Below are positions 1,188-27,734 of a stretch of DNA of 32,000 nucleotides, piece by piece; within the stretch, counting starts at the first letter, position 1; the number at the start of each line of letters is the position of its first letter. This DNA is from Cylindrospermopsis raciborskii Cr2010 (GTDB taxonomy: Bacteria > Cyanobacteriota > Cyanobacteriia > Cyanobacteriales > Nostocaceae), in the NCBI RefSeq assembly GCF_003367075.2, contig NZ_CP065936.1, positions 1,560,001 through 1,592,000 on the forward strand, written 5' to 3'. The position numbers and the translations under genes are program-made. The notes beneath the pieces are model-generated. The model did no database searches and had not been told where the DNA came from. It saw nothing but the letters and a program-made list of their open reading frames with translations.

Positions 1188-2028
1188 AGGAAGGAGCGAG
1201 GGTGTGATGAGACAAAAAGCCATACCAATCATCTAAGCCTGCACCAGTGGTAGCAGAAACTTGATAAACCCGAATGTGGGGATTAACCTTTTTCGCATAG
1301 TCAATACATTTTTCCACATCAAACTGTAAATAGGGCAATAAATCTATTTTAGTCAGGATCATAACATCACTGAGACGAAAGATGTGGGGGTATTTCATGG
1401 GTTTATCTTCCCCTTCTGTAACTGAGAGAATGACAACCTTAGTCTGCTCCCCCAGGTCAAATAATGCGGGACAGACTAAATTGCCCACATTCTCTATCAT
1501 CAATACAGAATCCAAGGGAGGTTGAAGTTCCTGTATTCCCCTTTCTATCATAGCTGCATCTAAATGACAACCTGTACCCGTATTTATTTGTATTACCTTG
1601 CAACCTGTGGATTGGATTTTTTGTGCATCGTTAGTGGTTTCCTGATCTCCTTCGATTACACTAATATTTAACTTGTGTTTTAAGTCATTAATTGTGCGAG
1701 TTAACAGAGTGGTTTTACCTGCACCTGGAGAACTCATCAGGTTGAGAGCTAGGATATTTCGCCCTTTAAACCACCCTCTATTTTGAGCAGCTATTAAATT
1801 ATTTTTGCCTAGAATTTCCTGTTCTAGTGATATGGTTGTGTGGTGAATTTTAGCATGAATATTTGCTGGAGATTGGTCATGTTGGTGATGATGTTCATGA
1901 ATATGGGAATGGCTAATTAGGGTTCCATCAGCTAGGGTATGGGTATGATAGTCCCAATTTACAGGAGGGGTATTCATATTAGTAATTCTGGCTTCTTGAT
2001 TGCTATCACATCCGCAGGTTACACACAT
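1147..2028 (-). CDS. hypB: Hydrogenase nickel-incorporation GTPase HypB
   Basis: N-terminal MCVTCGC metal-binding motif, a His-rich stretch (HSHIHEHHHQHD), the GSPGAGKTT P-loop and a CobW/HypB-type G-domain. The start overlaps the hypA stop (ATGTGTGTAA). Confidence 0.95.
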   Translation of the reverse strand: MCVTCGCDSNQEARITNMNTPPVNWDYHTHTLADGTLISHSHIHEHHHQHDQSPANIHAKIHHTTISLEQEILGKNNLIAAQNRGWFKGRNILALNLMSSPGAGKTTLLTRTINDLKHKLNISVIEGDQETTNDAQKIQSTGCKVIQINTGTGCHLDAAMIERGIQELQPPLDSVLMIENVGNLVCPALFDLGEQTKVVILSVTEGEDKPMKYPHIFRLSDVMILTKIDLLPYLQFDVEKCIDYAKKVNPHIRVYQVSATTGAGLDDWYGFLSHHTLAPSFKNALGSPSTCDR

Positions 2029-2360
2029 AATTCCTCCACTTCTATTTCCTTAATTTTTAATTCCTGACCTGTAATTAAATCCAACTGTACACTACCACAG
2101 GGACAGATTCCAAAAGGTTTATCTACCGTAAATGTGACACCACATTGTTGACATCTGGCCATTCCAGGGATCTCTATAATTTCTAATTTTGCTCCTTCAA
2201 CTATTGTACCCTGGGCACAGATATCGAAACAGAATTCTATCGCATCTGGCATTATGGCAGATAATTTACCTATTTCCAACGTCACCCGCTTAACTCGATG
2301 CTTGTGGGCATTTTCGCTGACCAGGGCAATAATGTTACGAGTTATTCCCAATTCGTGCAT
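2019..2360 (-). CDS. hypA: Hydrogenase maturation nickel metallochaperone HypA
   Basis: 113 aa with an MHELGIT N-terminus and two Cys pairs (CQQCG ... CPCGS) forming the HypA zinc site. It sits between hypE and hypB. Confidence 0.95.
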   Translation of the reverse strand: MHELGITRNIIALVSENAHKHRVKRVTLEIGKLSAIMPDAIEFCFDICAQGTIVEGAKLEIIEIPGMARCQQCGVTFTVDKPFGICPCGSVQLDLITGQELKIKEIEVEELCV

Positions 2361-2395
2361 ATTTTATATATCCTAATATCCCGAATACTATTAGA

Positions 2396-3499
2396 TTAAC
2401 ATATTCTCGGTAGCTGCTCTCCCACCAACATATCCACCATTCTTTCTGCACCAAAAACAGTTTTTAAAAAAACTATTCCAGGTAGTTGGTCAACTACTTG
2501 TCCAATAATTGCTGCTTGTTTTCCCAAGGGATGATCTTGCATGGTGGATAATACCAGTTCTGCTTGCTCCTGGGGAACAACAACCACTATTTTACCTTCG
2601 TTGGCTAAATACAATGGATCTAAACCAAGTATTTCACACATTCCAGTCACCTCCTCTCTAATGGGAATGGTCTGTTCATTGATTTTTATCCCTAGATTTG
2701 CTGTTTGGGCAAATTCGTTTAATACTGTCGCCAAACCTCCCCTAGTTACATCTCTCATAGCATGAATATCAGGACAGACCTTGATAATTTCAGCTACCAG
2801 TTCATGCAATGGTTGACTGTCGCTTTCTATATCTGTTTCTAATTCTAATTCTCCTCTAGCTATTAAAATTGCCGCACCATGATTCCCTATTTCTCCATTA
2901 ATAATTACCATATCCCCCGGTTGAATATGGCGAGGTGAAATTTTAATTCCCTGGGGTATTATCCCTATCCCAGCAGTATTAATAAATAATTTATCCGCAG
3001 AACCACGATGCACTACCTTGGTGTCTCCTGTAACTATTTGCACTCCCGCTTTTTGAGCAGCATGTTGCATACTCCCCACTACTTTTCTTAATGTTTCTAA
3101 TGGCAAACCCTCTTCTAAGATCATGCTACAACTTAAATATAGGGGTTTAGCACCCCCAACTGCCAGATCATTAATTGTGCCATTAACAGCTAAATCACCA
3201 ATATTGCCACCGGGGAAAAACAAGGGATCTACCACGTAAGAATCGGTGGTAAATGCTAATCTATCTCCCAGTTTTCCCAGGGTTGATAAATCAAAACTTG
3301 CCTGATCTTCTAATTGTGATAAAATCTCATTATGGAAATTTTTCACAAATACATCATGAATTAAATCGCTCATAGCTTTACCACCACTACCATGGGATAG
3401 GTTAATATGGCTATCTTTAACTTGATGGGAGCGACGACCTACCTGTGCTATTTTTTGAAATAGGGGATTTTGATTTTTCTGATTTTTATCTATTGCCAT
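2396..3499 (-). CDS. hypE: Hydrogenase expression/formation protein HypE (carbamoyl dehydratase)
   Basis: AIR-synthase/PurM-like fold motifs (HGSGG, DSYVV, GGNIGDLAVNGTINDLA) and the diagnostic C-terminal PRIC. The ORF extends to 3556, but that would overlap hypD. The ATG at 3499 (MAIDKNQ...) lies 8 nt after the hypD stop and is preferred. The ATG at 3532 is an alternative. Confidence 0.9.
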   Translation of the reverse strand: MAIDKNQKNQNPLFQKIAQVGRRSHQVKDSHINLSHGSGGKAMSDLIHDVFVKNFHNEILSQLEDQASFDLSTLGKLGDRLAFTTDSYVVDPLFFPGGNIGDLAVNGTINDLAVGGAKPLYLSCSMILEEGLPLETLRKVVGSMQHAAQKAGVQIVTGDTKVVHRGSADKLFINTAGIGIIPQGIKISPRHIQPGDMVIINGEIGNHGAAILIARGELELETDIESDSQPLHELVAEIIKVCPDIHAMRDVTRGGLATVLNEFAQTANLGIKINEQTIPIREEVTGMCEILGLDPLYLANEGKIVVVVPQEQAELVLSTMQDHPLGKQAAIIGQVVDQLPGIVFLKTVFGAERMVDMLVGEQLPRIC

Positions 3500-3506
3500 A
3501 CAATTG

Positions 3507-4634
3507 CTATATAAGAGCTGATAATCTGCCATATTTATAATATGCTGCACAAGCACCTTCAGAGGAAACCATACAAGTTCCTATGGGTGTTTCTGGTGTG
3601 CAAGCTGTGCCAAATACTTTACATTCCCAAGGTTTTAAAACTCCTTTAAGAATTTCTCCACATTGACAGGCTTTATGATCGGGCACTTTCAAATTGGGAA
3701 TAGTAAATTTGGCTTCTGCATCAAATTGAGCATATTCGGGACGTATTTTCAAACCAGAATTAGGAATTTCTCCCAACCCCCGCCATTCAAATTTCTCGCG
3801 AACTGTAAAAACCTGATTCATGGCTTGAATGGCATTTTGATTTCCCCCTTTCTCAACTAACCGATTATATTGGTTTTCTACTTCACACCGATTTTCTTCT
3901 ATTTGTTTTAATAACATCCATATAGATTGGAAAATATCCAATGGTTCAAATCCAGAAATGACAATCGGTTTATGATATCTTTCGGGAATAAACTCATATG
4001 GATCTGTTCCAATAACCATGCTTACATGACCTGGACCAACAAAACCATCTAGTTGTAAATCTGGATTTGCTAATAATGCTTCCAATGCTGGTATAACTAA
4101 TACATGATTGGAAAATAAACTAAAGTTTCTAATGTTTTCTGCTGCTGCTTGTAATATGGTAAATGCAGTGCTAGGAGCAGTGGTTTCAAATCCTAAACCA
4201 AAAAATACTATCTCTTTTTCAGGGTTTTCCTTGGCAATCTTTAAACTATCCAGAGGAGAATAGACCATTCTAATATCTGCTCCCTCAGCTTTTGCTTGTA
4301 ACAAGCTGGTTTTAGACCCTGGAACCCTCATAGCATCCCCAAAAGTAGTGAAAATAATCTGCTGGTTTTGGCAAAGGGCGATCGCATCATCTACTCTACC
4401 TTTTGGCATGACACATACCGGACATCCAGGTCCATGAATCAGTTCAATATTATCTGGTAATATTTCCTCAATGCCATATTTAAAAATCGCATGGGTGTGA
4501 CCACCACACACTTCCATTATTTTCAGGTGTTTGTTTTTGTGGGAATTTCTTGAGATTTGAAGACTCAGTTGTGCAATTTCTTTTTGTAAACCTTGAGCTT
4601 TTTCGGGGTTACGGAATTCATCTACATATTTCAT
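3507..4634 (-). CDS. hypD: Hydrogenase formation protein HypD
   Basis: 375 aa with MKYVDEFR at the N-terminus and the CGGHTH, GPGCPVCV and FETTAP motifs typical of HypD. Confidence 0.95.
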   Translation of the reverse strand: MKYVDEFRNPEKAQGLQKEIAQLSLQISRNSHKNKHLKIMEVCGGHTHAIFKYGIEEILPDNIELIHGPGCPVCVMPKGRVDDAIALCQNQQIIFTTFGDAMRVPGSKTSLLQAKAEGADIRMVYSPLDSLKIAKENPEKEIVFFGLGFETTAPSTAFTILQAAAENIRNFSLFSNHVLVIPALEALLANPDLQLDGFVGPGHVSMVIGTDPYEFIPERYHKPIVISGFEPLDIFQSIWMLLKQIEENRCEVENQYNRLVEKGGNQNAIQAMNQVFTVREKFEWRGLGEIPNSGLKIRPEYAQFDAEAKFTIPNLKVPDHKACQCGEILKGVLKPWECKVFGTACTPETPIGTCMVSSEGACAAYYKYGRLSALI

Positions 4635-4649
4635 AATTTTACCAAGGTG

Positions 4650-4928
4650 TTATAAATCGCTCCTTTGCAGGTCTTTAGTATCACCATAACTGTTAGCAAT
4701 TTCCTGTAAAAGGGCTAAGGTTTCTGCTGCTTCCTGTTCATTAATTCTGTTCATAGCAAAACCCACATGAACTAACACCCAATCTCCGAGACATTTTTCG
4801 GGTGGGTGTTCCTCATCAACAATACATGCTATATTGATTTGACGCTTAACTCCTCCAACCTTAACTATTGCTAGTTTATGTTCTGGATTGCTGATTTCTA
4901 TTATTTGTCCAGGTATTCCTAAACACAT
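4650..4928 (-). CDS. hypC: Hydrogenase assembly chaperone HypC/HupF family
   Basis: 92 aa with the canonical MCLGIPGQI N-terminus (essential Cys2). It lies directly upstream of hypD. Confidence 0.95.
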   Translation of the reverse strand: MCLGIPGQIIEISNPEHKLAIVKVGGVKRQINIACIVDEEHPPEKCLGDWVLVHVGFAMNRINEQEAAETLALLQEIANSYGDTKDLQRSDL

Positions 4929-5036
4929 ATCTTTTTCTCGACCTAATTAGAGTTTACTAGAGTTTAACATACATCTTTGGAAAGAAAATGTGGCGTTGCA
5001 CAATAATTGAGGTTCAATCATCTGATATCTACCGCT

Positions 5037-6584
5037 CTAGCTACGAATCACTGTAATGGTTCTTCCCTCTCGACTAATGGCCTGTTCCATACTAATCCTC
5101 TCACCCATGGGTGGTAATCCCGGACGGTGATCAAAAATTACTAACCAACCTCTATCTAATCCTAACCCACCCAGATACTTATCCAATTGGGTCAAACCCT
5201 TCGTTAACGGATCCGATTTTCCCCTCCAAACCTTTAACTCTATGCCCATCACTACCTTGCCATAGCGTAAACAAATATCCATTCTTCCAGAACCAACGGC
5301 ATATTCCCGTTCTAAAGTGCCACCACCATTCACTACCCGATGTAAAAACGCCATCAAAACTAAATGGGGAGCAATTTCATGATAAGGCGCACTTTTGAGT
5401 AATGGTTCCCCATGTTGTCGCCAAAACTCTAGGAAAGCATTTAAGAGTTTGTCAGGATTTAAAGTATTATCAGTATTTAACCAAGTAGGTTGAATCTGGG
5501 GTAGACTATCCTGACTACCCTGGGACAAAACACGAGGAATCACCTCCTGGTAAATGGGATTGGCAATGGTTAGTCCTCCCAAGGGACTGCGCTTTACCAA
5601 GCCTAAATCTAGCAAGAAACGGCGATCATCCTCTGGGGTATCTGGTAAGTCCGATCCAGCTAACATGGGTTGAATAATGGCTTTGACCCGATCTTCCCGT
5701 AAGCGCTCTGCCAAACTATCCAAATGGGTATCCTGGCGCTGAATCAGAACTTCTTTGGCTTGGTTAATTACTTCAGCGGTAATGGGTTGAGTAATATCTT
5801 TCACTAACACCTGAGTGGCTTGACGAGCTAGGGCGTTTACTAACCATGGTTGCCCATCGGTTAAATAAAATGCTTGTTTAATTGCTTCCGGGGTAAAAAT
5901 TTGTCCTGTAGCTTGCGTATGTTGTAAGTAAAGTTCTTCCACCTCTGACAGAGTGAAATTACTTAAAGTCAAGGATTCCGCTTTGATATTGAAAGGACTT
6001 GACGTATTCAGTCGTTCACTTCCACCAGATTTAACCTTATAGTCCCGCACATCCCGCATACCAATTAACCCCACCGAATGGGGAAATCCCCGAGGACGAC
6101 GGGGAAAACCTGAGCGTAATTGTCTTAAAATTAGGATTAAAGCTTCATCTGTTAGGGAATCGATTTCATCTAAAAAGATTACAAGAGGTCTTGGAGATTG
6201 TGCGGACCACTCACTTAAAGTTTTGCCTATTCCTGAGTCTGTTTCACGCTCTGGCCAATAGGATGGTTGTAGTTCTTTGGGTAAATAAAATTTGATTGCC
6301 TGTTTCCATTCTTCTAAAATAACCTGCTCCGCTTGCTGGGGATTATGGGAGAATACTGATCCCACTTCAACGGAAAGCATAACTGCGGTATATTTTCCAC
6401 TATCAGTCAATTCTCGTGCTAAGGCTATCATAGCTGTAGTTTTGCCGACTTGTCGCGGCGCGTGAATTATAAAGTAGTTTTCTCCGTCAATTAGTGCTTT
6501 CAAATCCGGTAGTCGAGCTGTGGGAGAGAGCATATAGTGGATTTCGGATTTACAGGGTCCAGCAGTATTAAAGTATTTAGGCAT
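5037..6584 (-). CDS. AAA-type ATPase fused to a C-terminal PD-(D/E)XK nuclease-like domain (function unknown)
   Basis: 515 aa. Walker A is HAPRQVGKTT and Walker B is LVIFLDEIDSL. The C-terminus has GRMDI-x11-GIELKVW, a D...ExK nuclease-type motif. The N-terminal YFNTAGPC...HYML signature matches a widespread family of orphan ATP-binding proteins. The gene is inserted between hypF and hypC. Confidence 0.8.
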   Translation of the reverse strand: MPKYFNTAGPCKSEIHYMLSPTARLPDLKALIDGENYFIIHAPRQVGKTTAMIALARELTDSGKYTAVMLSVEVGSVFSHNPQQAEQVILEEWKQAIKFYLPKELQPSYWPERETDSGIGKTLSEWSAQSPRPLVIFLDEIDSLTDEALILILRQLRSGFPRRPRGFPHSVGLIGMRDVRDYKVKSGGSERLNTSSPFNIKAESLTLSNFTLSEVEELYLQHTQATGQIFTPEAIKQAFYLTDGQPWLVNALARQATQVLVKDITQPITAEVINQAKEVLIQRQDTHLDSLAERLREDRVKAIIQPMLAGSDLPDTPEDDRRFLLDLGLVKRSPLGGLTIANPIYQEVIPRVLSQGSQDSLPQIQPTWLNTDNTLNPDKLLNAFLEFWRQHGEPLLKSAPYHEIAPHLVLMAFLHRVVNGGGTLEREYAVGSGRMDICLRYGKVVMGIELKVWRGKSDPLTKGLTQLDKYLGGLGLDRGWLVIFDHRPGLPPMGERISMEQAISREGRTITVIRS

Positions 6585-6630
6585 AATTGTGAGCTATAAT
6601 TTAGATTGATTCTTGGGTCGGAACGCTTAG

Positions 6631-9030
6631 TTAGGCATTTTGCCCACATCTAGCTGCAACAATCATAGCTTGTCCCAGAGATATTCCTCCATCATTTGGA
6701 GGTACTTTACTATGGGTAAAAACTTCCATGCCCATATTTTGCAGTAATTTAGTTGTTTGCTGCAAAAGAATTCGGTTTTGAAATACTCCCCCGGTTAGTG
6801 CTACTTGATTAGTTTTATATTCTTGACTCAATTGTTTAACTGTTTCTATAATCAAATGGGCTAGAGTTAGGTGAAACTTGGCAGCTATTTCCCCTATTCC
6901 AACTTGTTGGTTTATATCCTCTAAGATTCCTTTCCATATAGAAGCTGTGTTTACATAGTACATTCCATCTAACTTTTCAATATTTTGATGTGATGGATAA
7001 CTGGATATATCATTTAGTATTTCAGGACTAATACAGGACTCCATTTCTATAGCTGCTTGTCCCTCGTAGGTACATTCTTCTCGACAAATGCCAATTGCTG
7101 CTGCTACCGCATCAAATAACCTACCAACAGATGATACAAGGGGTGAGTTAATATTTTTTTCCACCATTTGATCTAGCAATTTCAAAGGTTGTTTTTGTAG
7201 AAACTGCACAATTTCTAGAGATGGATATTGTTCTTGAACCTCTTGCCAATTTAAAGCACTATTGAGGTGAGCATAAGTATTTCTCCAGGGTTGATAAATA
7301 GATTGTTTTCCCCCTATCATAGGTACTGGTTTAAAGGTAGCCAGTCTTTGGTAATTAGAATAATCAGCCAGGAAAAATTCTCCTCCCCAGAAATTACCAT
7401 CTTCTCCATATCCTAAACCATCAAAAGCTACACCTAATACTGGCTGGCTATTTAAAGGTATTTTGTTTTCCGCTAGACAAGCTGCAATGTGAGCATGATG
7501 ATGTGGAATTTCATAAAGTTGGATTTCATTACTGACTGCTAATTGTCTACCCAGTTTTGATGATAAATATTCCGGATGTTTATCAATGGCAATAATTGCT
7601 GGTTTATGGGCGAATAAATTGAGATATAAATTTAGGGTTTCTTGATAGGTAGCAAAAGCGGAGGCATTTTCTAAATCTCCTAAATGTTGTGATAAAATAG
7701 CCTCACCTGCTCTCAATAAACAAAAGGTGTTTTTCAATTCCCCACCCATGGCTAAAATAGGTGGTGTCTTTTCAAGACCTTGTGGTAAAATAATCGGTGC
7801 TGGTGCATATCCCCTAGCGCGTCTGAGAATTTGGATTTTTTGATTAACTACTCTCACTACTGAATCATCTACTCGGTTAATAATATCTCGATTATGTAAT
7901 AAAAAATAATCAGCTATTGGAGCTAACTTTTTTTTAGCATCTGAATTATCAATACATTGAGGTTCATCGGCAATATTACCACTGGTCAGAACTATGGGAA
8001 CATTCATTCTCCTGAGAATTAAATGATGTAAAGGAGTATAGGGCAACATAAAACCCAGAGTGTTTTGACCAGGTGCGATCGCCCTGGCTATGGGATTCCC
8101 TATTTGGGATTTGACTGAGTTAGGTGGCAAGTTATTTTGGGGATTAATTTTTAATAAAACAATTGGTGCAGCAGGACTAGTTAATAAATCTTTTTCTAAA
8201 TCAGAAATCTGACAATATTGAGATATTATATTGATATCTCTAGCCATTAAAGCAAAAGGTTTATGATAACGTTTTTTTCGCTGTCGTAATTTTTCAACTA
8301 CAGTTTCTTGGGTAGCATCACAAGCTAAATGGAAACCGCCTAACCCTTTAATAGCAACGATTTCACCTTTTTGTAATAAAGTACAAACTGCATCAACCTC
8401 ATCCAACATAGAAAACATATCCCCAGTGATAGGTTGACCATCAGCACGTTCTAACCATGCGCGGGGACCACAACGAAAACAAGCTACGGGTTGAGCGTGG
8501 AAACGTCTATTATTCACATCTTCATATTCCTGGTTACATTCTCCACACATAGGAAAATCTACCATGCTAGTATTATTTCTATCGTAGGGAATGGCCTGCA
8601 TAATACTTAACCGTGGTCCACAATGGGTACAGTTAGTAAAGGGGTAGCGGAAATAACGACTAAAGGGATCAAAAATTTCCTTTTGACATTCATCACAGGT
8701 TGCAGCATCGGGAACAATTTCCGTTTTCACTGGTGTTTCCATACTGGGAGAAATGATAAATTCTTTGAGTTCATCACCATGGAAATCATTAGACCCAGAA
8801 AGTGGACTCCTGATTAGTTCATGAATTTGAGCTAGGGGTGGACAGTGGTCATACAGTTGCTGCACAAAAGCAGTTATCTTTTCCTCACTCCCTACAATCC
8901 GGATTAAAACTCCATCCCCATCATTACATACATCTCCTTTTAAACCAGCATTTTTAGCCAAGCGGTAAACCGTGGGACGAAAACCTACACCCTGAACAGT
9001 ACCCCTAACTCTTATTTGCTCTGTTCTCAT
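6631..9030 (-). CDS. hypF: Carbamoyltransferase HypF
   Basis: 799 aa. It has an N-terminal acylphosphatase domain (VRGTVQGVGFRP), paired CxxC zinc-finger motifs (CDECQKE, CTHCGPR, CGECNQE, CFRCGPR), a YrdC-like region and a Kae1-like C-terminus. Confidence 0.95.
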   Translation of the reverse strand: MRTEQIRVRGTVQGVGFRPTVYRLAKNAGLKGDVCNDGDGVLIRIVGSEEKITAFVQQLYDHCPPLAQIHELIRSPLSGSNDFHGDELKEFIISPSMETPVKTEIVPDAATCDECQKEIFDPFSRYFRYPFTNCTHCGPRLSIMQAIPYDRNNTSMVDFPMCGECNQEYEDVNNRRFHAQPVACFRCGPRAWLERADGQPITGDMFSMLDEVDAVCTLLQKGEIVAIKGLGGFHLACDATQETVVEKLRQRKKRYHKPFALMARDINIISQYCQISDLEKDLLTSPAAPIVLLKINPQNNLPPNSVKSQIGNPIARAIAPGQNTLGFMLPYTPLHHLILRRMNVPIVLTSGNIADEPQCIDNSDAKKKLAPIADYFLLHNRDIINRVDDSVVRVVNQKIQILRRARGYAPAPIILPQGLEKTPPILAMGGELKNTFCLLRAGEAILSQHLGDLENASAFATYQETLNLYLNLFAHKPAIIAIDKHPEYLSSKLGRQLAVSNEIQLYEIPHHHAHIAACLAENKIPLNSQPVLGVAFDGLGYGEDGNFWGGEFFLADYSNYQRLATFKPVPMIGGKQSIYQPWRNTYAHLNSALNWQEVQEQYPSLEIVQFLQKQPLKLLDQMVEKNINSPLVSSVGRLFDAVAAAIGICREECTYEGQAAIEMESCISPEILNDISSYPSHQNIEKLDGMYYVNTASIWKGILEDINQQVGIGEIAAKFHLTLAHLIIETVKQLSQEYKTNQVALTGGVFQNRILLQQTTKLLQNMGMEVFTHSKVPPNDGGISLGQAMIVAARCGQNA

Positions 9031-9064
9031 GTTTTTACTGCAAAAGCATATTCATATTATATTC

Positions 9065-12000
9065 TAATAGGGTTGGTGGAATATTCAAGGGGAGGTTAGA
9101 AAATGCGATCGCTCTTATGAATGAGGTTGTCTATCCGAATATCAAATATTGGTGGTTGAAAAAAGACCTTATATGCGGACACAGATTCCCATGATGAAAA
9201 TATATCATTGTCAAGTCAAGTAGTCAACCCCCCAATGGAAAATTTTCTGGTGCGTAATACATATTAGGGTTGATGGAATATTAGGAGGGTTGGGAAATGC
9301 GATCGCTCTTATGAACGGGATTGTCTATCCAGGAATATGAGATGTTGATGGAATATTAGGAGGGTTGGGAAATGCGATCGCCTTTATGAAGGGGGTTGTC
9401 GATCCGAATATCAAATATTGGTGGTTGAAAAAAGACCTTATATGCGGACACAGATTCCCATGATGAAAATATATCATTGTCAAGTCAAGTAGTCAACCCC
9501 CCAATGGAAAATTTTCTGGCGCGTAATACATATTAGGGTTGATGGAATATTAGGAGGGTTGGGAAATGCGATCGCCTTTATGAAGGGGGTTGTCTATCCG
9601 AATATCAAATATTGGTGGTTGAAAAAAGACCTTATATGCGGACACAGATTCCCATGGTGAAAATATATCATTGTCAAGTCAAGTGGTCAACCCCCTAATG
9701 GAAAATTTTCTGGCGCGTAATACAGGGTTGATGGAATATTAGGAGGGTTGGGAAATGCGATCGCCCTTATGAAGGGGGTTGTCGATCCGAATATCAAATA
9801 TTGGTGGTTGAAAAAAGACCTTATATGCGGACACAGATTCTCATGATGAAAATATATCATTGTCAAGTCAATTAGTCAACCCCCCAATGGAAAATTTTCC
9901 GGCGCGTAATACAGGGTTGATGGAATAGGAGGGTTGGGAAATGCGATCGCCTTTATGAAGGGGGTTGTCGATCCGAATATCAAATATTGGTGGTTGAAAA
10001 AAGACCTTATATGCGGACACAGATTCCCATGATGAAAATATATCATTGTCAAGTCAAGTAGTCAACCCCCCAATGGAAAATTTTCTGGCGCGTAATACAT
10101 ATTAGGGTTGGTGAAATATTAGGAGGGGTTGGGAAATGCGATCGCTCTTATGAACGGGATTGTCTATCCAGGAATATGAGATGTTGATGGAATATTCGGA
10201 GAGGGGACTAAAAAATGCGATCGCCCTTATGAAGGGGATTGTCGATCCGAATATCAAATATTGGTGGTTGAAAAAAGACCTTATATGCGGACACGGATTC
10301 CCGCGATGAAAATATATCATTGTCAAGTCAAGCAGTCAACCCCCCAATGGAAAATTTTCTGGCGCGTAATACATATTAGGGTTGGTGAAATATTAGGAGG
10401 GGTTGGGAAATGCGATCGCTCTTATGAACGGGATTGTCTATCCAGGAATATGAGATGTTGATGGAATATTCGGAGAGGGGACTAAAAAATGCGATCGCCC
10501 TTATGAAGGGGATTGTCGATCCGAATATTAAATATTGGTGGTTGAAAAAAGACCTTATATGGGCACACAGATTCCCATGATGAAAATATATCATTGTCAA
10601 GTCAAGCAGTCAACCCCCCAATGGAAAATTTTCTGGCGCGTAATACATATTAGGGTTGGTGAAATATTAGGAGGGGTTGGGAAATGCGATCGCTCTTATG
10701 AACGGGATTGTCTATCCAGGAATATGAGATGTTGATGGAATATTAGGAGAGGGGACTAAAAAATGCGATCGCCTTTATGAATGGGGTTGTCGATCCGAAT
10801 ATCAAATATTGATGGTTGAAAAAAGACCTTATATGCGGACACAGATTCCCATGATGAAAATATATCATTGTCAAGTCAAGCAGTCAACCCCCCAATGGAA
10901 AATTTTCTGGCGCGTAATACATATTAGGGTTGGTGAAATATTAGGAGGGGTTGGGAAATGCGATCGCCTTTATGAAGGGGGTTGTCTATCCGAATATCAA
11001 ATATTGGTGGTTGAAAAAAGACCTTATATGCGGACACAGATTCCCATGGTGAAAATATATCATTGTCAAGTCAAGTGGTCAACCCCCTAATGGAAAATTT
11101 TCTGGCGCGTAATACAGGGTTGATGGAATATTAGGAGGGTTGGGAAATGCGATCGCTCTTATGAACGGGATTGTCGATCCGAATATCAAATATTGGTGGT
11201 TGAAAAAAGACCTTATATGGGCACACAGATTCCCATGATGAAAATATATCATTGTCAAGTCAAGTAGTCAACCCCCCAATGGAAAATTTTCTGGCGCGTA
11301 ATACAGGGTTGATGGAATATTAGGAGGGTTGGGAAATGCGATCGCCTTTATGAATGGGGTTGTCGATCCGAATATCAAATATTGGTGGTTGAAAAAAGAC
11401 CTTATATGCGGACACAGATTCCCATGATGAAAATATATCATTGTCAAGTCAAGTAGTCAACCCCCCAATGGAAAATTTTCTGGCGCGTAATACATATTAG
11501 GGTTGATGGAATATTAGGAGGGTTGGGAAATGCGATCGCCCTTATGAATGGGGTTGTCTATCCAGGAATATGAGATGTTGATGAAATATTAGGAGGGGTT
11601 GGGAAATGCGATCGCCTTTATGAAGGGGGTTGTCTATCCGAATATCAAATATTGGTGGTTGAAAAAAGACCTTATATGCGGACACGGATTCCCATGATGA
11701 AAATATATCATTGTCAAGTCAAGTAGTCAACCCCCCAATGGAAAATTTTCTGGCGCGTAATACAGGGTTCGTGGAATATTTGAGGGGAGGTTAGAAAACG
11801 CGATCGCCTTTATGAATGGGGTTGTCGATCCGAATATCAAATATTGGTGGTTGAAAAAAGACCTTATATGCGGACACAGATTTCCATGATGAAAATATAT
11901 CATTGTCAAGTCAATTAGTCAACCCCCCAATGGAAAATTTTCTGGCGCGTAATACATATTAGGGTTGATGGAATATTAGGAGGGTTGGGAAATGCGATCG

Positions 12001-12442
12001 CCTTTATGAAGGGGGTTGTCGATCCGAATATCAAATATTGGTGGTTGAAAAAAGACCTTATATGCGGACACAGATTCCCATGGTGAAAATATATCATTGT
12101 CAAGTCAATTAGTCAACCCCCCAATGCAAAATTTTCTGGCGCGTAATACAGGGTTGGTGAAATATTAGGAGGGGTTGGGAAATGCGATCGCCTTTATGAA
12201 TGGGGTTGTCGATCCGAATATCAAATATTGGTGGTTGAAAAAAGACCTTATATGGGCACACAGATTCCCATAATGAAAATATATCATTGTCAAGTCAAGT
12301 AGTCAACCCCCCAATGGAAAATTTTCTGGCGCGTAATACATATTAGGGTTGGTGAAATATTAGGAGGGGTTGGGAAATGCGATCACTCTTATAAAGGGGA
12401 TTGTCGATCCGAATATCAAATATTGGTGGTTGAAAAAAGACC
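9065..12442. repeat. Non-coding tandem repeat array: 16 units (11 of ~186-195 bp, 5 of ~269-274 bp) built from head (H) and tail (T) modules
   Basis: The marker GGTGGTTGAAAAAAGACC (GATGG... at 10811) recurs at 9151, 9420, 9614, 9803, 9989, 10263, 10537, 10811, 11006, 11195, 11384, 11654, 11846, 12040, 12230 and 12425. The spacings are 269, 194, 189, 186, 274, 274, 274, 195, 189, 189, 270, 192, 194, 190 and 195 bp. There are 21 head modules, giving 20 perfect GCGATCGC sites plus one degenerate GCGATCAC. The last unit is truncated after ...AAGACC at 12442. Confidence 0.97.
9199..9227 (-). promoter_or_regulatory. hypF-proximal copy of the array-borne sigma70-type promoter (-35 TTGACT, 17-nt spacer, extended -10 TGaTATATT)
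   Basis: The minus strand reads GGGGGGTTGACTacttgacttgacaaTGaTATATTttcatcatggg. The -35 box is at 9227-9222 and the -10 box at 9204-9199. The predicted TSS is near 9192, about 160 nt upstream of the hypF ATG (9030). This is a sequence prediction only. Confidence 0.5.
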
Positions 12443-12590
12443 ACATTAAGTAGGGAGGCACAATTATTTGTAGGATGGGTCGCGAGACCCATGGGGGCGT
12501 TGAGTTTCATACTTCAACCCAACCTACGTTCATCTTAGATTTAATTCCACCCACCCACTTAGGTAGCGTCGAGGAGGGAATAAGAATGGC

Positions 12591-13181
12591 TTAATGCCAA
12601 ACGTAGATAAGTACAAACAGAATAATCCAAATAACATCAACAAAGTGCCAAAACAAAGAGGTTGAGTTTACCCCAAAGTGACCATGATCGTAATTGCCAG
12701 GAAGAAAAGAGCGCATGAGAATTATCAACTGCAATAGAATACCTGTGAGAACATGTAACCCATGAAATCCCGTTAATAAATAAAACATACCGCCGAATGT
12801 ACCGGAAGTAAAGCCAAATTCCAGTTGACTCCACTCCACATATTGACCATATAAGAAATAAGTACCCATAGCGATTGTGGCTAATAAGTATAATCGAAAT
12901 CCAGGTAAATCATGTTTTTGTAAACGTCTTTCAGCCAAATAAATTACAAAACTACTAGAAACCAGAATAATTGTGTTAATTGTGGGACTTACTATTTCCA
13001 GTCCTTCCACCCCAGCAGGAAGCCAATTGGAATTGGTAGTTTTATAGACGATATAACCAGCAAAAAAACTGAGAAATATGACACTTTCCGAAAGTAGAAA
13101 AACAATAAAACCAAACATTTTACTGCCTTCTTCATCATGACCATGTTGAGATTGAATAGGATTGTTGAGCGAGCTTTCCAT
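12591..13181 (-). CDS. coxC: Heme-copper oxidase subunit III (ARTO-type operon)
   Basis: 196-aa polytopic membrane protein with subunit III motifs (FFAGY, YGQYVEW, GFHGLHV, WHFVDVIW). It is the last gene of the coxBAC operon. Confidence 0.9.
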   Translation of the reverse strand: MESSLNNPIQSQHGHDEEGSKMFGFIVFLLSESVIFLSFFAGYIVYKTTNSNWLPAGVEGLEIVSPTINTIILVSSSFVIYLAERRLQKHDLPGFRLYLLATIAMGTYFLYGQYVEWSQLEFGFTSGTFGGMFYLLTGFHGLHVLTGILLQLIILMRSFLPGNYDHGHFGVNSTSLFWHFVDVIWIILFVLIYVWH

Positions 13182-15986: not shown

Positions 15987-16595
15987 CTATTTCCCCAATA
16001 CACTGTTGACATCCTCTCCCATTCTCAACAAATTATCTGCCGTATTATGTACACCAAATTCTGCTGCTAATTGGGCTCCTAGAGTTCCATGCGCGTACAT
16101 AATTACCATGATCAAAACTCCGGCAAAAATATAACTCCAACCTACCTGCATATCGGCATCTTTATAGGTTATATAACGTTGCCATCCTCTCCAAAAGGTC
16201 ATTCCTACCATTAAGGCTAATAAGAAAACACCACCTACACCATGCCACATCATGGTTTCCATAGCTTGCATTCCCCAAGAACTCTTGAGGTTCACCGGTG
16301 GAGTGGCTAATAACATTTCATAAAAACCCGCAGCAACTGTAAAAAATGTAATTACAGATGAAGCTACCATGTTGTACCAACCAACTTCAAATAATTGAGC
16401 TCGGTTGACAGTTAAACCCAGAGATTTAAACAAGAAGTGGTCTATAGGAAATAGAACAGCTACTAAATCGAAAATAACTCCAATGATAAACAGTCCTAAA
16501 GTTAGGTGAACTAGATTTGGATGAATGGGGATTGTGTAGGGTAATCCGTTGGCTCCCATTTGAGCACTTACTTGATCAATTAGTTCTGAATTCAT
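15987..16595 (-). CDS. DUF2231-like integral membrane protein
   Basis: The ORF runs to 16655. However, the ATG at 16595 (MNSELID...) forms an ATGA overlap with the stop of the upstream paralog, suggesting translational coupling. It has a PIHPNLVH motif and several TM helices. Confidence 0.7.
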   Translation of the reverse strand: MNSELIDQVSAQMGANGLPYTIPIHPNLVHLTLGLFIIGVIFDLVAVLFPIDHFLFKSLGLTVNRAQLFEVGWYNMVASSVITFFTVAAGFYEMLLATPPVNLKSSWGMQAMETMMWHGVGGVFLLALMVGMTFWRGWQRYITYKDADMQVGWSYIFAGVLIMVIMYAHGTLGAQLAAEFGVHNTADNLLRMGEDVNSVLGK

Positions 16596-17092
16596 TTCAA
16601 GATTCCATCCTTTACTGCTTCCACAACTGGTACTGTATGAATGCCATAAACCCATACCAGTTCATCACCTAGATATACTTGAAAACCTACTAGTATGGTC
16701 ACCAGTAATCCCACAGCTAAATAGTGCACCGGCAATTTTTGTGGATTACGCGCACGCAGTACATAACGCCAAGCTGTGATTGCAGCTAAAATTCCTGACA
16801 GTGACCAACCAATTAGGGTATGGTAGTTTAAAACTGATTTCACAATATTGTAGGGTTTGGCTAAACCAGCTTCAAACTGACCGAAAATAATTGCTATGAA
16901 AATAGAAACTGTAGCTACAAACAAGTTCCAAAATCCCACTTCATAAAATCTGGTTTTTCCTGTGAAAAAGCCAACTGCATCACAAAAAAATGCAAATAAT
17001 ATCATGGCAATTACGAAGTGAACCACAATCGGATGGAGTGGATCTGGATAGGGTAAATTGTGGTCGTTCAATGAGGTTAAATACTCAAACAT
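16592..17092 (-). CDS. DUF2231-like integral membrane protein
   Basis: 166 aa with a PLHPIVVHF motif and four predicted TM helices. It is a paralog of the next gene and the first gene of the apparent oxidase operon. Confidence 0.7.
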   Translation of the reverse strand: MFEYLTSLNDHNLPYPDPLHPIVVHFVIAMILFAFFCDAVGFFTGKTRFYEVGFWNLFVATVSIFIAIIFGQFEAGLAKPYNIVKSVLNYHTLIGWSLSGILAAITAWRYVLRARNPQKLPVHYLAVGLLVTILVGFQVYLGDELVWVYGIHTVPVVEAVKDGILK

Positions 17093-19603: not shown

Positions 19604-19676
19604 CGAGCGCGGAGGGATTTGAACCCCCGACCCACAGAACCGGAATCTGTTGCTCTATCCACTGAGCCACGCGCCC
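19604..19676 (-). tRNA. tRNA-Arg (anticodon CCG)
   Basis: The minus strand reads GGGCGCG TG GCTC AGTGGAT AGAGC A ACAGA TTCCGGT TCTGT GGGTC GGGGG TTCAAAT CCCTC CGCGCTC G. This is a full cloverleaf with a TTC loop. The 3' CCA is not encoded. Confidence 0.9.
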
Positions 19677-27662: not shown

Positions 27663-27734
27663 AGCGGGTAACGCGATTCGAACGCGCGACATCAACCTTG
27701 GCAAGGTTGCGCTCTACCACTGAGCTATACCCGC
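27663..27734 (-). tRNA. tRNA-Gly (anticodon GCC)
   Basis: The minus strand reads GCGGGTA TA GCTC AGTGGT AGAGC G CAACC TTGCCAA GGTTG ATGTC GCGCG TTCGAAT CGCGT TACCCGC T. This is a full cloverleaf. The 3' CCA is not encoded. Confidence 0.9.

Follow-up and report, generated by a model that had tools for sequence, protein, structure and literature searches.

The stretch of DNA analysed here (the window) is 32,000 nucleotides long (32 kb) and comes from the chromosome of Cylindrospermopsis raciborskii Cr2010 (contig NZ_CP065936.1, positions 1,560,001 to 1,592,000). Between the genes hypF and coxC lies a non-coding tandem array (9065–12442), whose unit comprises one 125-bp module, T, and one or two modules, H, of ~64–79 bp. 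Every complete T carries a predicted promoter on the minus strand, directed towards hypF. Our best reading from the sequence, a tentative one, is that C. raciborskii genomes have two or more such large arrays, each a series of non-coding units that would be transcribed autonomously, with a copy number that varies by strain. It is real, unusual and largely undescribed.

Architecture of the array

The array fills 3378 of the 3560 nt (95%) between the start of hypF (9030) and the stop codon of coxC (12591), in agreement with the initial annotation of this DNA, which had it occupying nearly the whole spacer. Tandem Repeats Finder gave periods of 189–190 and 269–274 bp with 91–96% matches across 9072–12442. 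Anchor motifs located 16 starts and 15 ends of T within 9065–12442, corresponding to 15 complete T modules and one cut off at 12442. They also located 21 H modules, including five H-H pairs, and reproduced the earlier count of 11 H-T and five H-H-T units. The three 274-bp units U6–U8 are near-identical and form a higher-order repeat. Read along the minus strand the array starts with GGTCTTTTTTCAACC (T position 93), inside the truncated unit. Neither T nor H has a copy elsewhere in the window (chance expectation 0).

Both modules are repeated, leaving no unique spacer, and no family of clustered regularly interspaced short palindromic repeats (CRISPR) was found above chance. Reading frames are broken in all six frames, the longest open reading frame (ORF) having 93 amino acids. 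The view that the array is neither a CRISPR nor a repeat protein gene, but non-coding, is thus upheld. H is a fast-evolving filler module, each copy of which is centred on a site of the highly iterated palindrome HIP1. The density of the HIP1 octamer GCGATCGC is 5.9 per kb in the array and 0.31 per kb in the remainder of the window, which is 19 times lower. The RNA predicted from the minus strand is C-rich, with about 26% C and 15% G.

The features of the locus are as follows, in window coordinates. Each promoter range runs from the −35 to the −10 element.

6631–9030, minus strand: hypF, 799 amino acids, Pfam HypF; opens the hypF-cyrO-hypC-D-E-A-B cluster and lies downstream of the array, in the same direction
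9031–9064, minus strand: 34 nt, all the unique sequence that separates the array from the hypF ATG
9065–12442, minus strand (presumed functional strand): whole array, 15 complete units and one truncated, from the repeat finder and anchors
9065–9261, minus strand: U1, H-T, 197 bp, adjoining hypF; T 9137–9261; −35 TTGACT at 9227–9222 and TG-extended −10 TATATT at 9204–9199; predicted start at ~9192, 162 nt 5′ of the hypF ATG; its H variant contains TTGAAT
9262–9530, minus strand: U2, H-H-T, 269 bp; T 9406–9530; promoter 9496–9468
9531–9724, minus strand: U3, H-T, 194 bp; T 9600–9724; promoter 9690–9662, with −35 variant TTGACC
9725–9913, minus strand: U4, H-T, 189 bp; T 9789–9913; promoter 9879–9851
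9914–10099, minus strand: U5, H-T, 186 bp; T 9975–10099; promoter 10065–10037
10100–10373, minus strand: U6, H-H-T, 274 bp; T 10249–10373; promoter 10339–10311
10374–10647, minus strand: U7, H-H-T, 274 bp; T 10523–10647; promoter 10613–10585; leader variant GTGCCC
10648–10921, minus strand: U8, H-H-T, 274 bp; T 10797–10921; promoter 10887–10859
10922–11116, minus strand: U9, H-T, 195 bp; T 10992–11116; promoter 11082–11054, with −35 variant TTGACC
11117–11305, minus strand: U10, H-T, 189 bp; T 11181–11305; promoter 11271–11243
11306–11494, minus strand: U11, H-T, 189 bp, equal to the T consensus; T 11370–11494; promoter 11460–11432
11495–11764, minus strand: U12, H-H-T, 270 bp; T 11640–11764; promoter 11730–11702
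11765–11956, minus strand: U13, H-T, 192 bp; T 11832–11956; promoter 11922–11894
11957–12150, minus strand: U14, H-T, 194 bp; T 12026–12150; promoter 12116–12088
12151–12340, minus strand: U15, H-T, 190 bp; T 12216–12340; promoter 12306–12278
12341–12442, minus strand: truncated unit adjoining coxC, with one H and the tail of T only, and no promoter
12443–12590, minus strand: unique spacer 3′ of coxC, not significantly similar to T or H
12591–13181, minus strand: coxC, Pfam CoxC; closes the DUF2231-DUF2231-coxB-coxA-coxC cluster and lies upstream of the array, in the same direction

A predicted promoter in every T module

A motif scan (TTGACT/C, 17-nt spacer, TG-n-TATATT) detected a minus-strand promoter in all 15 complete T modules. 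It comprises an A/T tract (GAAAATTTTCC), the −35 hexamer TTGACT (TTGACC in two copies) and the −10 element TG-A-TATATT, scoring 10/12 with the extended −10 in addition. It lies on the strand of the cox genes and hypF and points to hypF. No promoter comparable to it was found by the scan on the plus strand of the units. The initial annotation missed the T promoter because it had read the plus strand. The same promoter is present in 33, 30–32, 30 and 27+ copies of the other arrays described below.

The −10 is followed by 34 nt and then by a run of six T nucleotides (GGTCTTTTTT). Past this run the tail of T is well conserved, and contains the palindrome AATAT-TTG-ATATT. TTGAC direct repeats are conserved in T. 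The array contains no NtcA motif (GTA-N8-TAC).

Copy number among strains

The array at the hypF locus (array 1) has 33 T modules in GCA_006523545.1, 32 in the complete chromosome CP073250.1, 30 in the complete genome of strain CS-505, about 19 in GCA_036409495.1 and 15 in this window. Compared with the other strains, the array region of GCA_036409495.1 (segment 2960–7554) is full of small indels and has scrambled stretches, probably because long-read errors were left uncorrected; the assembly was used for a rough copy count alone. The order of the units varies among the five assemblies. All the strains sampled at the hypF locus have the array, which comprises 15 to 33 head-to-tail units and, in the difference of copy number among the five assemblies, behaves as a variable-number tandem repeat (VNTR) or satellite.

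The initial annotation had warned that the array might collapse to one or two copies as an artefact of assembly. This does not apply, as four other assemblies with long contigs show the array in differing orders and copy numbers. Contigs from short reads all break inside the array, ending one or a few units away from coxC or hypF. The array itself is real and not a product of assembly.

A second array and the distribution of the unit

A second array (array 2) lies between a purE-like gene and hemC in GCA_006523545.1 (contig VHLJ01000003.1, segment positions about 1905–10870). It contains 27 and 6 promoter-bearing units, split by a 2.2-kb insertion sequence (IS; segment positions 3100–5309) with a DUF4277-type transposase and the inverted repeats CCCACATTCCGCACCCT. 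The IS is located inside the leader of a T module, with the target duplication ATATAA. The draft contig ACYA01000060.1 of CS-505 begins inside the same hemC-side array (segment 1–2450), so that no fewer than two strains have array 2, with >30 units. The promoters of this array face away from hemC, and ahead of them lies the 3′ end of a convergent gene. Within one strain, the similarity between arrays 1 and 2 is 94.9%, compared with 95.4% within arrays, and polymorphic sites are common to both.

Exact-match scans of genome and metagenome collections with a 20-nt T word found T at the hypF locus alone. Loosening the promoter word in a metagenome scan yielded 23 chance matches and one true match, at the same hypF locus. 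BLAST searches with the unit against plasmids and phages gave nothing, and three viral pattern scans gave chance matches or none; phage or plasmid DNA was accordingly rejected as an identity for the array. An ORF read across units had 17 matches in a protein search, all of them C. raciborskii or metagenome entries. No solitary T or H was seen in the window or in the flanks of the fetched loci. The question had been raised whether the unit is locus-specific, dispersed or syntenic. Array 2 shows that it is not locus-specific; neither is it dispersed, always forming large arrays at two loci. A dispersed family of miniature inverted-repeat transposable elements (MITEs) was rejected on the same grounds, and on the lack of solitary modules in the regions covered, among which was no directly scanned complete genome of C. 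raciborskii.

In CS-505 the interval from cyr to hypF contains a sequence of ~80 nt (GTAGGGTGA..AATGTTG.ACTTAGACCGCATCC.GAATCAAGAGC.ACTGCTACGAGC; segment ~2760–2840). The same sequence immediately adjoins the hemC-side end of array 2 (segment ~10870–10950), and is probably the remnant of a repeated or mobile element.

Conservation of T relative to H

Seventy-three complete T copies from three strains were gathered by Hamming distance over the whole module, the promoter not being used as an anchor. The longest invariant run in these copies is the 25-nt block TTGACTTGACAATGATATATTTTCA (permutation p = 2e-5), which spans the promoter spacer, the −10 and four more bases. In array 2 the block is intact in 28 of 30 copies.

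T has diverged by 3.0–3.4% compared with 9–13% for the H of the same unit (computed on its first 41 ungapped bases), a ratio of 2.7–3.9 in four arrays. T and H are linked and would be expected to share a genealogy, so that the slower evolution of T points to constraint on T, or else to hypermutation of H. Homogenisation between copies may contribute.

A related module in Spirulina

The sole other true match of the 20-nt T promoter word in 185,579 species genomes was a 2.3-kb contig of Spirulina sp. 06S082 (NZ_JAYGHV010000474.1). This carries a tex gene with 97% identity to that of Spirulina sp. CCY15215; it is therefore a Spirulina gene, and the contig is not contamination from the Nostocales. 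Divergent from tex are at least 2.2 tandem units of 360 bp (segment 1501–2300), the array running off the end of the contig. No array was found upstream of tex in close relatives of 06S082.

The Spirulina units and T have in common only the A/T tract, the −35 TTGACT, a 22-nt core that is identical in the two (TTGACTTGACAATGATATATTT), the leader and the T-run. The leaders have 64% identity in register (p about 6e-4 compared with shuffles), and the T-run lies at exactly the 34-nt distance found in T. Each Spirulina unit also contains two hairpins, CGGGGATTGAAAATCCCCG and AATCCATTAAAATGGATT. Two unrelated cyanobacteria have thus each amplified units built on the same promoter–leader module, which argues that it is the module itself that is functional or mobile.

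The array, hypF and the cyr rearrangement

In non-toxic strains the T promoters aim into hypF, with 34 unique bases from the array to the ATG. In the cylindrospermopsin-producing genomes (CS-505, a Lake Wivenhoe strain and a contig labelled Chrysosporum bergii ANA360D), a segment comprising one T-H unit and hypF is inverted. At the inversion junction of these genomes there is an IS1 transposase, followed by a cyr polyketide synthase gene. The latter begins about 500 nt past a T truncated at position ~26 (for CS-505, LYXA01000001.1, segment 1–14134). U1 remains attached to hypF in these genomes, and 30 units are still beside coxC in CS-505, now facing IS1 and the 3′ end of hypF. On this comparison of sequences the array is one border of the hyp/cyr rearrangement. 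The 30 units persist in CS-505 away from hypF, and array 2 faces a convergent gene; the array is therefore maintained independently of hypF. U1 itself probably provides the promoter of hypF.

The HypF protein of the window has 98% identity to the C. raciborskii protein cluster, and 75% to that of the next genus, Sphaerospermopsis. A lineage in which HypF is 94% identical (Logan SRR26511549, segment 6850–7000) has holB fused directly to hypF at a junction with TTTTGC microhomology, and lacks both the array and the DUF2231-coxBAC cluster. This may be a Raphidiopsis brookii D9-like genome. In Sphaerospermopsis, hupS and an NHL-repeat gene are located upstream of hypF, with no T or H. T as the ancestral hypF promoter was rejected, since neither the Sphaerospermopsis nor the 94%-identical lineage has T or H upstream of hypF.

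Sequences flanking the array

A weak promoter-like sequence, TTGAAT-16-TAGAAT (9088–9061, minus strand), overlaps the unique 9031–9064 segment, its −35 lying in the H of U1. On the plus strand there is a weak promoter-like TTTACT-18-TATATT (9/12) at 9034–9063, divergent from hypF. It would start at the first base of the array, on the G-rich strand and antisense to all the T promoters; a match this strong is expected by chance. On the coxC side, the 12443–12590 spacer contains a GC-rich hairpin, ATGGGTCGCGAGACCCAT on the plus strand (12475–12492). An origin of T or H from the coxC terminator region or the region upstream of hypF was rejected, there being no significant similarity.

Pfam assignments were confirmed for HypF, CoxC, CoxA, CoxB and two DUF2231 proteins. 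We take the DUF2231-DUF2231-coxB-coxA-coxC cluster to be cox3/alternative respiratory terminal oxidase (ARTO)-like, from the Anabaena cox operons. The two neighbouring genes for DUF2231 membrane proteins lie 5′ of coxB (15987–16655 and 16592–17092, minus strand), and the ORFs as listed overlap by 64 nt. CoxC has 225 amino acids in other annotations compared with 196 in the ORF here, so the start codons of the cox cluster are uncertain. The sole Rfam matches in the window are tRNA genes at 19604–19676 and 27663–27734 (minus strand).

Discussion

If the T promoters are active, housekeeping RNA polymerase would start about 7 nt past each TATATT, giving 15 starts here and 30–33 in other strains. 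The product would be a C-rich, weakly structured non-coding RNA (ncRNA), ending near the U-run (about 35–40 nt) or running on through H and the next units. Read-through RNA would gain a CCUCC-rich stretch from H. The many copies would provide a high dosage of RNA, as with NsiR1 and the repeat RNA of Trichodesmium. Either the RNA or the act of its transcription might be the product under selection. The unit adjoining hypF would serve as the hypF promoter as well, and unequal recombination would alter the copy number.

Several observations weigh against this reading. The motif scan found no terminator-like site in the array, and Rfam gave no match in the array or the Spirulina units at either gathering or permissive (E ≤ 10) thresholds. 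For RNA of either strand of the unit, folding was no better than for shuffles, and the same is true of the short leaders, whose hairpins are weak. No target was predicted among 22 gene starts of the window, for which the RNA duplex energies were weaker than those of shuffled controls. Conservation of the core beyond C. raciborskii comes from one outgroup, a single contig of low coverage, and two copies in array 2 are altered in or just after the −10 hexamer. The invariance of the promoter block could partly reflect homogenisation of the copies rather than selection.

That the array is a neutral or selfish macrosatellite is a possibility that we consider somewhat unlikely. On this explanation a unit, perhaps derived from a mobile element, was expanded by unequal recombination, its promoter motif is vestigial, and the array does nothing for the cell. 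The unit RNA showed neither structure nor a terminator or target, as such a satellite would have it, and yet the 25-nt promoter block is invariant and, in each of the four arrays, the evolution of T is 3–4 times slower than that of the H linked to it. Copy number varies widely between strains, there are higher-order repeats such as the three near-identical 274-bp units, and the polymorphisms common to arrays 1 and 2 are those predicted by gene conversion. However, about 7–14 kb has been retained at the same two loci in all the strains sampled, within a streamlined genome of ~3.9 Mb. The arrays adjoin IS elements and the borders of rearrangements (IS1 in the cylindrospermopsin-producing strains, the DUF4277 IS inside array 2), which accords with a mobile or satellite origin, but the promoter–leader–T-run module is conserved in a different cyanobacterial order.

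It is improbable that the array acts in cis, as tandem copies of the hypF promoter and 5′ untranslated region that jointly raise transcription of the hyp (hydrogenase maturation) operon. Every promoter aims at hypF with no terminator intervening and merely 34 nt of unique DNA before the ATG, and exactly one promoter-bearing unit remained with hypF after the cyr-associated inversion. Yet what the 30 units of CS-505 now face is IS1 and the 3′ end of hypF, no gene downstream of array 2 is co-oriented with it, and the Spirulina array aims away from tex, its sole visible neighbour. Leaders of 3–7 kb would moreover be wasteful, and the related lineage with hypF directly behind holB has no array.

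There is similarly little chance that the array is a bank of sites in DNA that titrates or positions a protein, such as a sigma factor or RNA polymerase, a factor reading TTGACTnnTTGACTTGACA, or a nucleoid or partition protein. The spacer of a promoter is usually free to vary, but here it is invariant, and identical in Spirulina; this would suit a binding site, as would the conserved TTGAC direct repeats, the AATAT-N3-ATATT palindrome of the T tail, and HIP1 sites 19 times denser than in the rest of the window. The motif is equally a textbook promoter, however, making transcription the simpler reading. No candidate binding protein is encoded nearby, and we know of no bacterial system with 190-bp units on such a scale.

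Small peptides or type I toxin–antitoxin modules, for which the T promoter would make the antisense RNA, are hardly credible: each H has AGGAGG-N8-ATG on the plus strand, with a 5-codon mini-ORF overlapping (ATGA) a 25-codon ORF to which the predicted minus-strand RNA is exactly antisense, and gene callers mark ORFs of 54–96 amino acids here in several genomes, but the units have no plus-strand promoter, the peptide is charged, not hydrophobic, the lengths of the units are not divisible by 3, and a coding or toxin–antitoxin reading was rejected on the pattern of variants, which are mostly non-synonymous, among them a TGG-to-TGA change that gives U8 a premature stop, and a TAG/CAG/TGG site.

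The initial annotation had left the nature of the array open between RNA genes, a promoter or decoy array and a satellite. On the evidence presented here, autonomous transcription units are more likely than either a hyp-specific promoter array or a dispersed MITE, though this is a prediction from sequence.

Comparison with known systems

In Nostoc PCC 7120, NsiR1 is encoded by 12 tandem 'sibling' copies upstream of hetF, each with its own DIF1 promoter (PMC9045159). The array resembles it as a set of non-coding, slightly divergent tandem direct repeats in the Nostocales, with a promoter motif (here predicted) in each repeat and a heterocyst-related gene as a neighbour. NsiR1 had already been named as the nearest system in architecture, with the reservation that the DIF motif and the hetF context are missing, and both parts of that statement hold. 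The DIF1 motif TCCGGA, which at the −35 position confers heterocyst-specific transcription, is absent from 9065–12442; here the −35 is TTGACT, and the promoter is of the housekeeping sigma-70 type with an extended −10. The array is flanked by coxC and hypF, and is not upstream of or antisense to hetF, which is not among the genes of the 32-kb window. As regards homology with NsiR1, a small RNA of ~60 nt that has a terminator, the array gave no Rfam match at E ≤ 10 (the presence of an NsiR1 model in the library was not verified), has no terminator in each unit and folds no better than shuffled sequence. Unlike NsiR1, its units are composite (T with a variable H, about 190–274 bp), with 15–33 copies at each of two loci, varying by strain.

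Trichodesmium erythraeum IMS101 has an ncRNA array of >6 kb, with seven repeats of 736–973 bp, each having its own transcription start, that accounts for 44.7% of primary reads (PMC4143802). This too is a non-coding tandem array on the kilobase scale, of lineage-restricted sequence, in a filamentous diazotrophic cyanobacterium; a start in each repeat is only predicted here. The present units are 4–5 times shorter and far more numerous, and no partial duplicate of a neighbouring gene was seen inside the C. raciborskii units. A search with one exact 20-nt word of the T promoter core found no copy in Trichodesmium.

The LDR (Ldr/Rdl) and SIB (Ibs/Sib) loci of Escherichia coli are tandem type I toxin–antitoxin modules. 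They also have repeats of a few hundred bp, and a strong small-RNA promoter (here predicted) opposite a small ORF led by a Shine–Dalgarno sequence. The ORF in the present array, in contrast, is non-hydrophobic, unconserved and promoterless, and the copy number is an order of magnitude higher. VNTRs and macrosatellites are similar in their head-to-tail units, a strain-variable copy number (15 to 33 here), higher-order repeats and better-preserved interior copies. The array differs from them in its long composite units, each with a complete promoter under apparent constraint, and in a module common to an unrelated cyanobacterium. The sequence family is new and, by analogy, the array at best works like the NsiR1 and Trichodesmium arrays.

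In the 2010 genome paper on CS-505, one non-coding cluster with internal repeats is noted as 'occurring 39 times' (PMC2821919). This may be the T-H unit; the cluster was never characterised.

Significance

The array breaks every short-read assembly at the cox-hypF locus, and its copy number could serve as a marker for strain typing. The core common to Spirulina sp. and C. raciborskii suggests a mobile promoter/RNA module, and no database describes such a module. More speculatively, the ~95-nt core of T, from the UP-like tract to the U-run, might be a horizontally spread 'promoter plus tiny RNA' module that amplifies into kilobase arrays in Raphidiopsis and Spirulina. The 45–65 promoters per genome would then give one of the most abundant RNAs of the cell, acting as a global sink or regulator, for example as a sponge for RNA polymerase/sigma or an RNA-binding protein, and its copy number would tune the physiology of a bloom-forming toxic species. 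We regard this extended proposal, suggested by the sequence comparisons, as unlikely.

The genome of C. raciborskii is among the smallest of the filamentous cyanobacteria, and nonetheless keeps roughly 7–14 kb of non-coding arrays with dozens of near-consensus promoters. If these promoters fire, they would add a third case of tandem ncRNA in cyanobacteria, unrelated in sequence, to those of NsiR1 and Trichodesmium, and the arrays could account for a large share of transcription.

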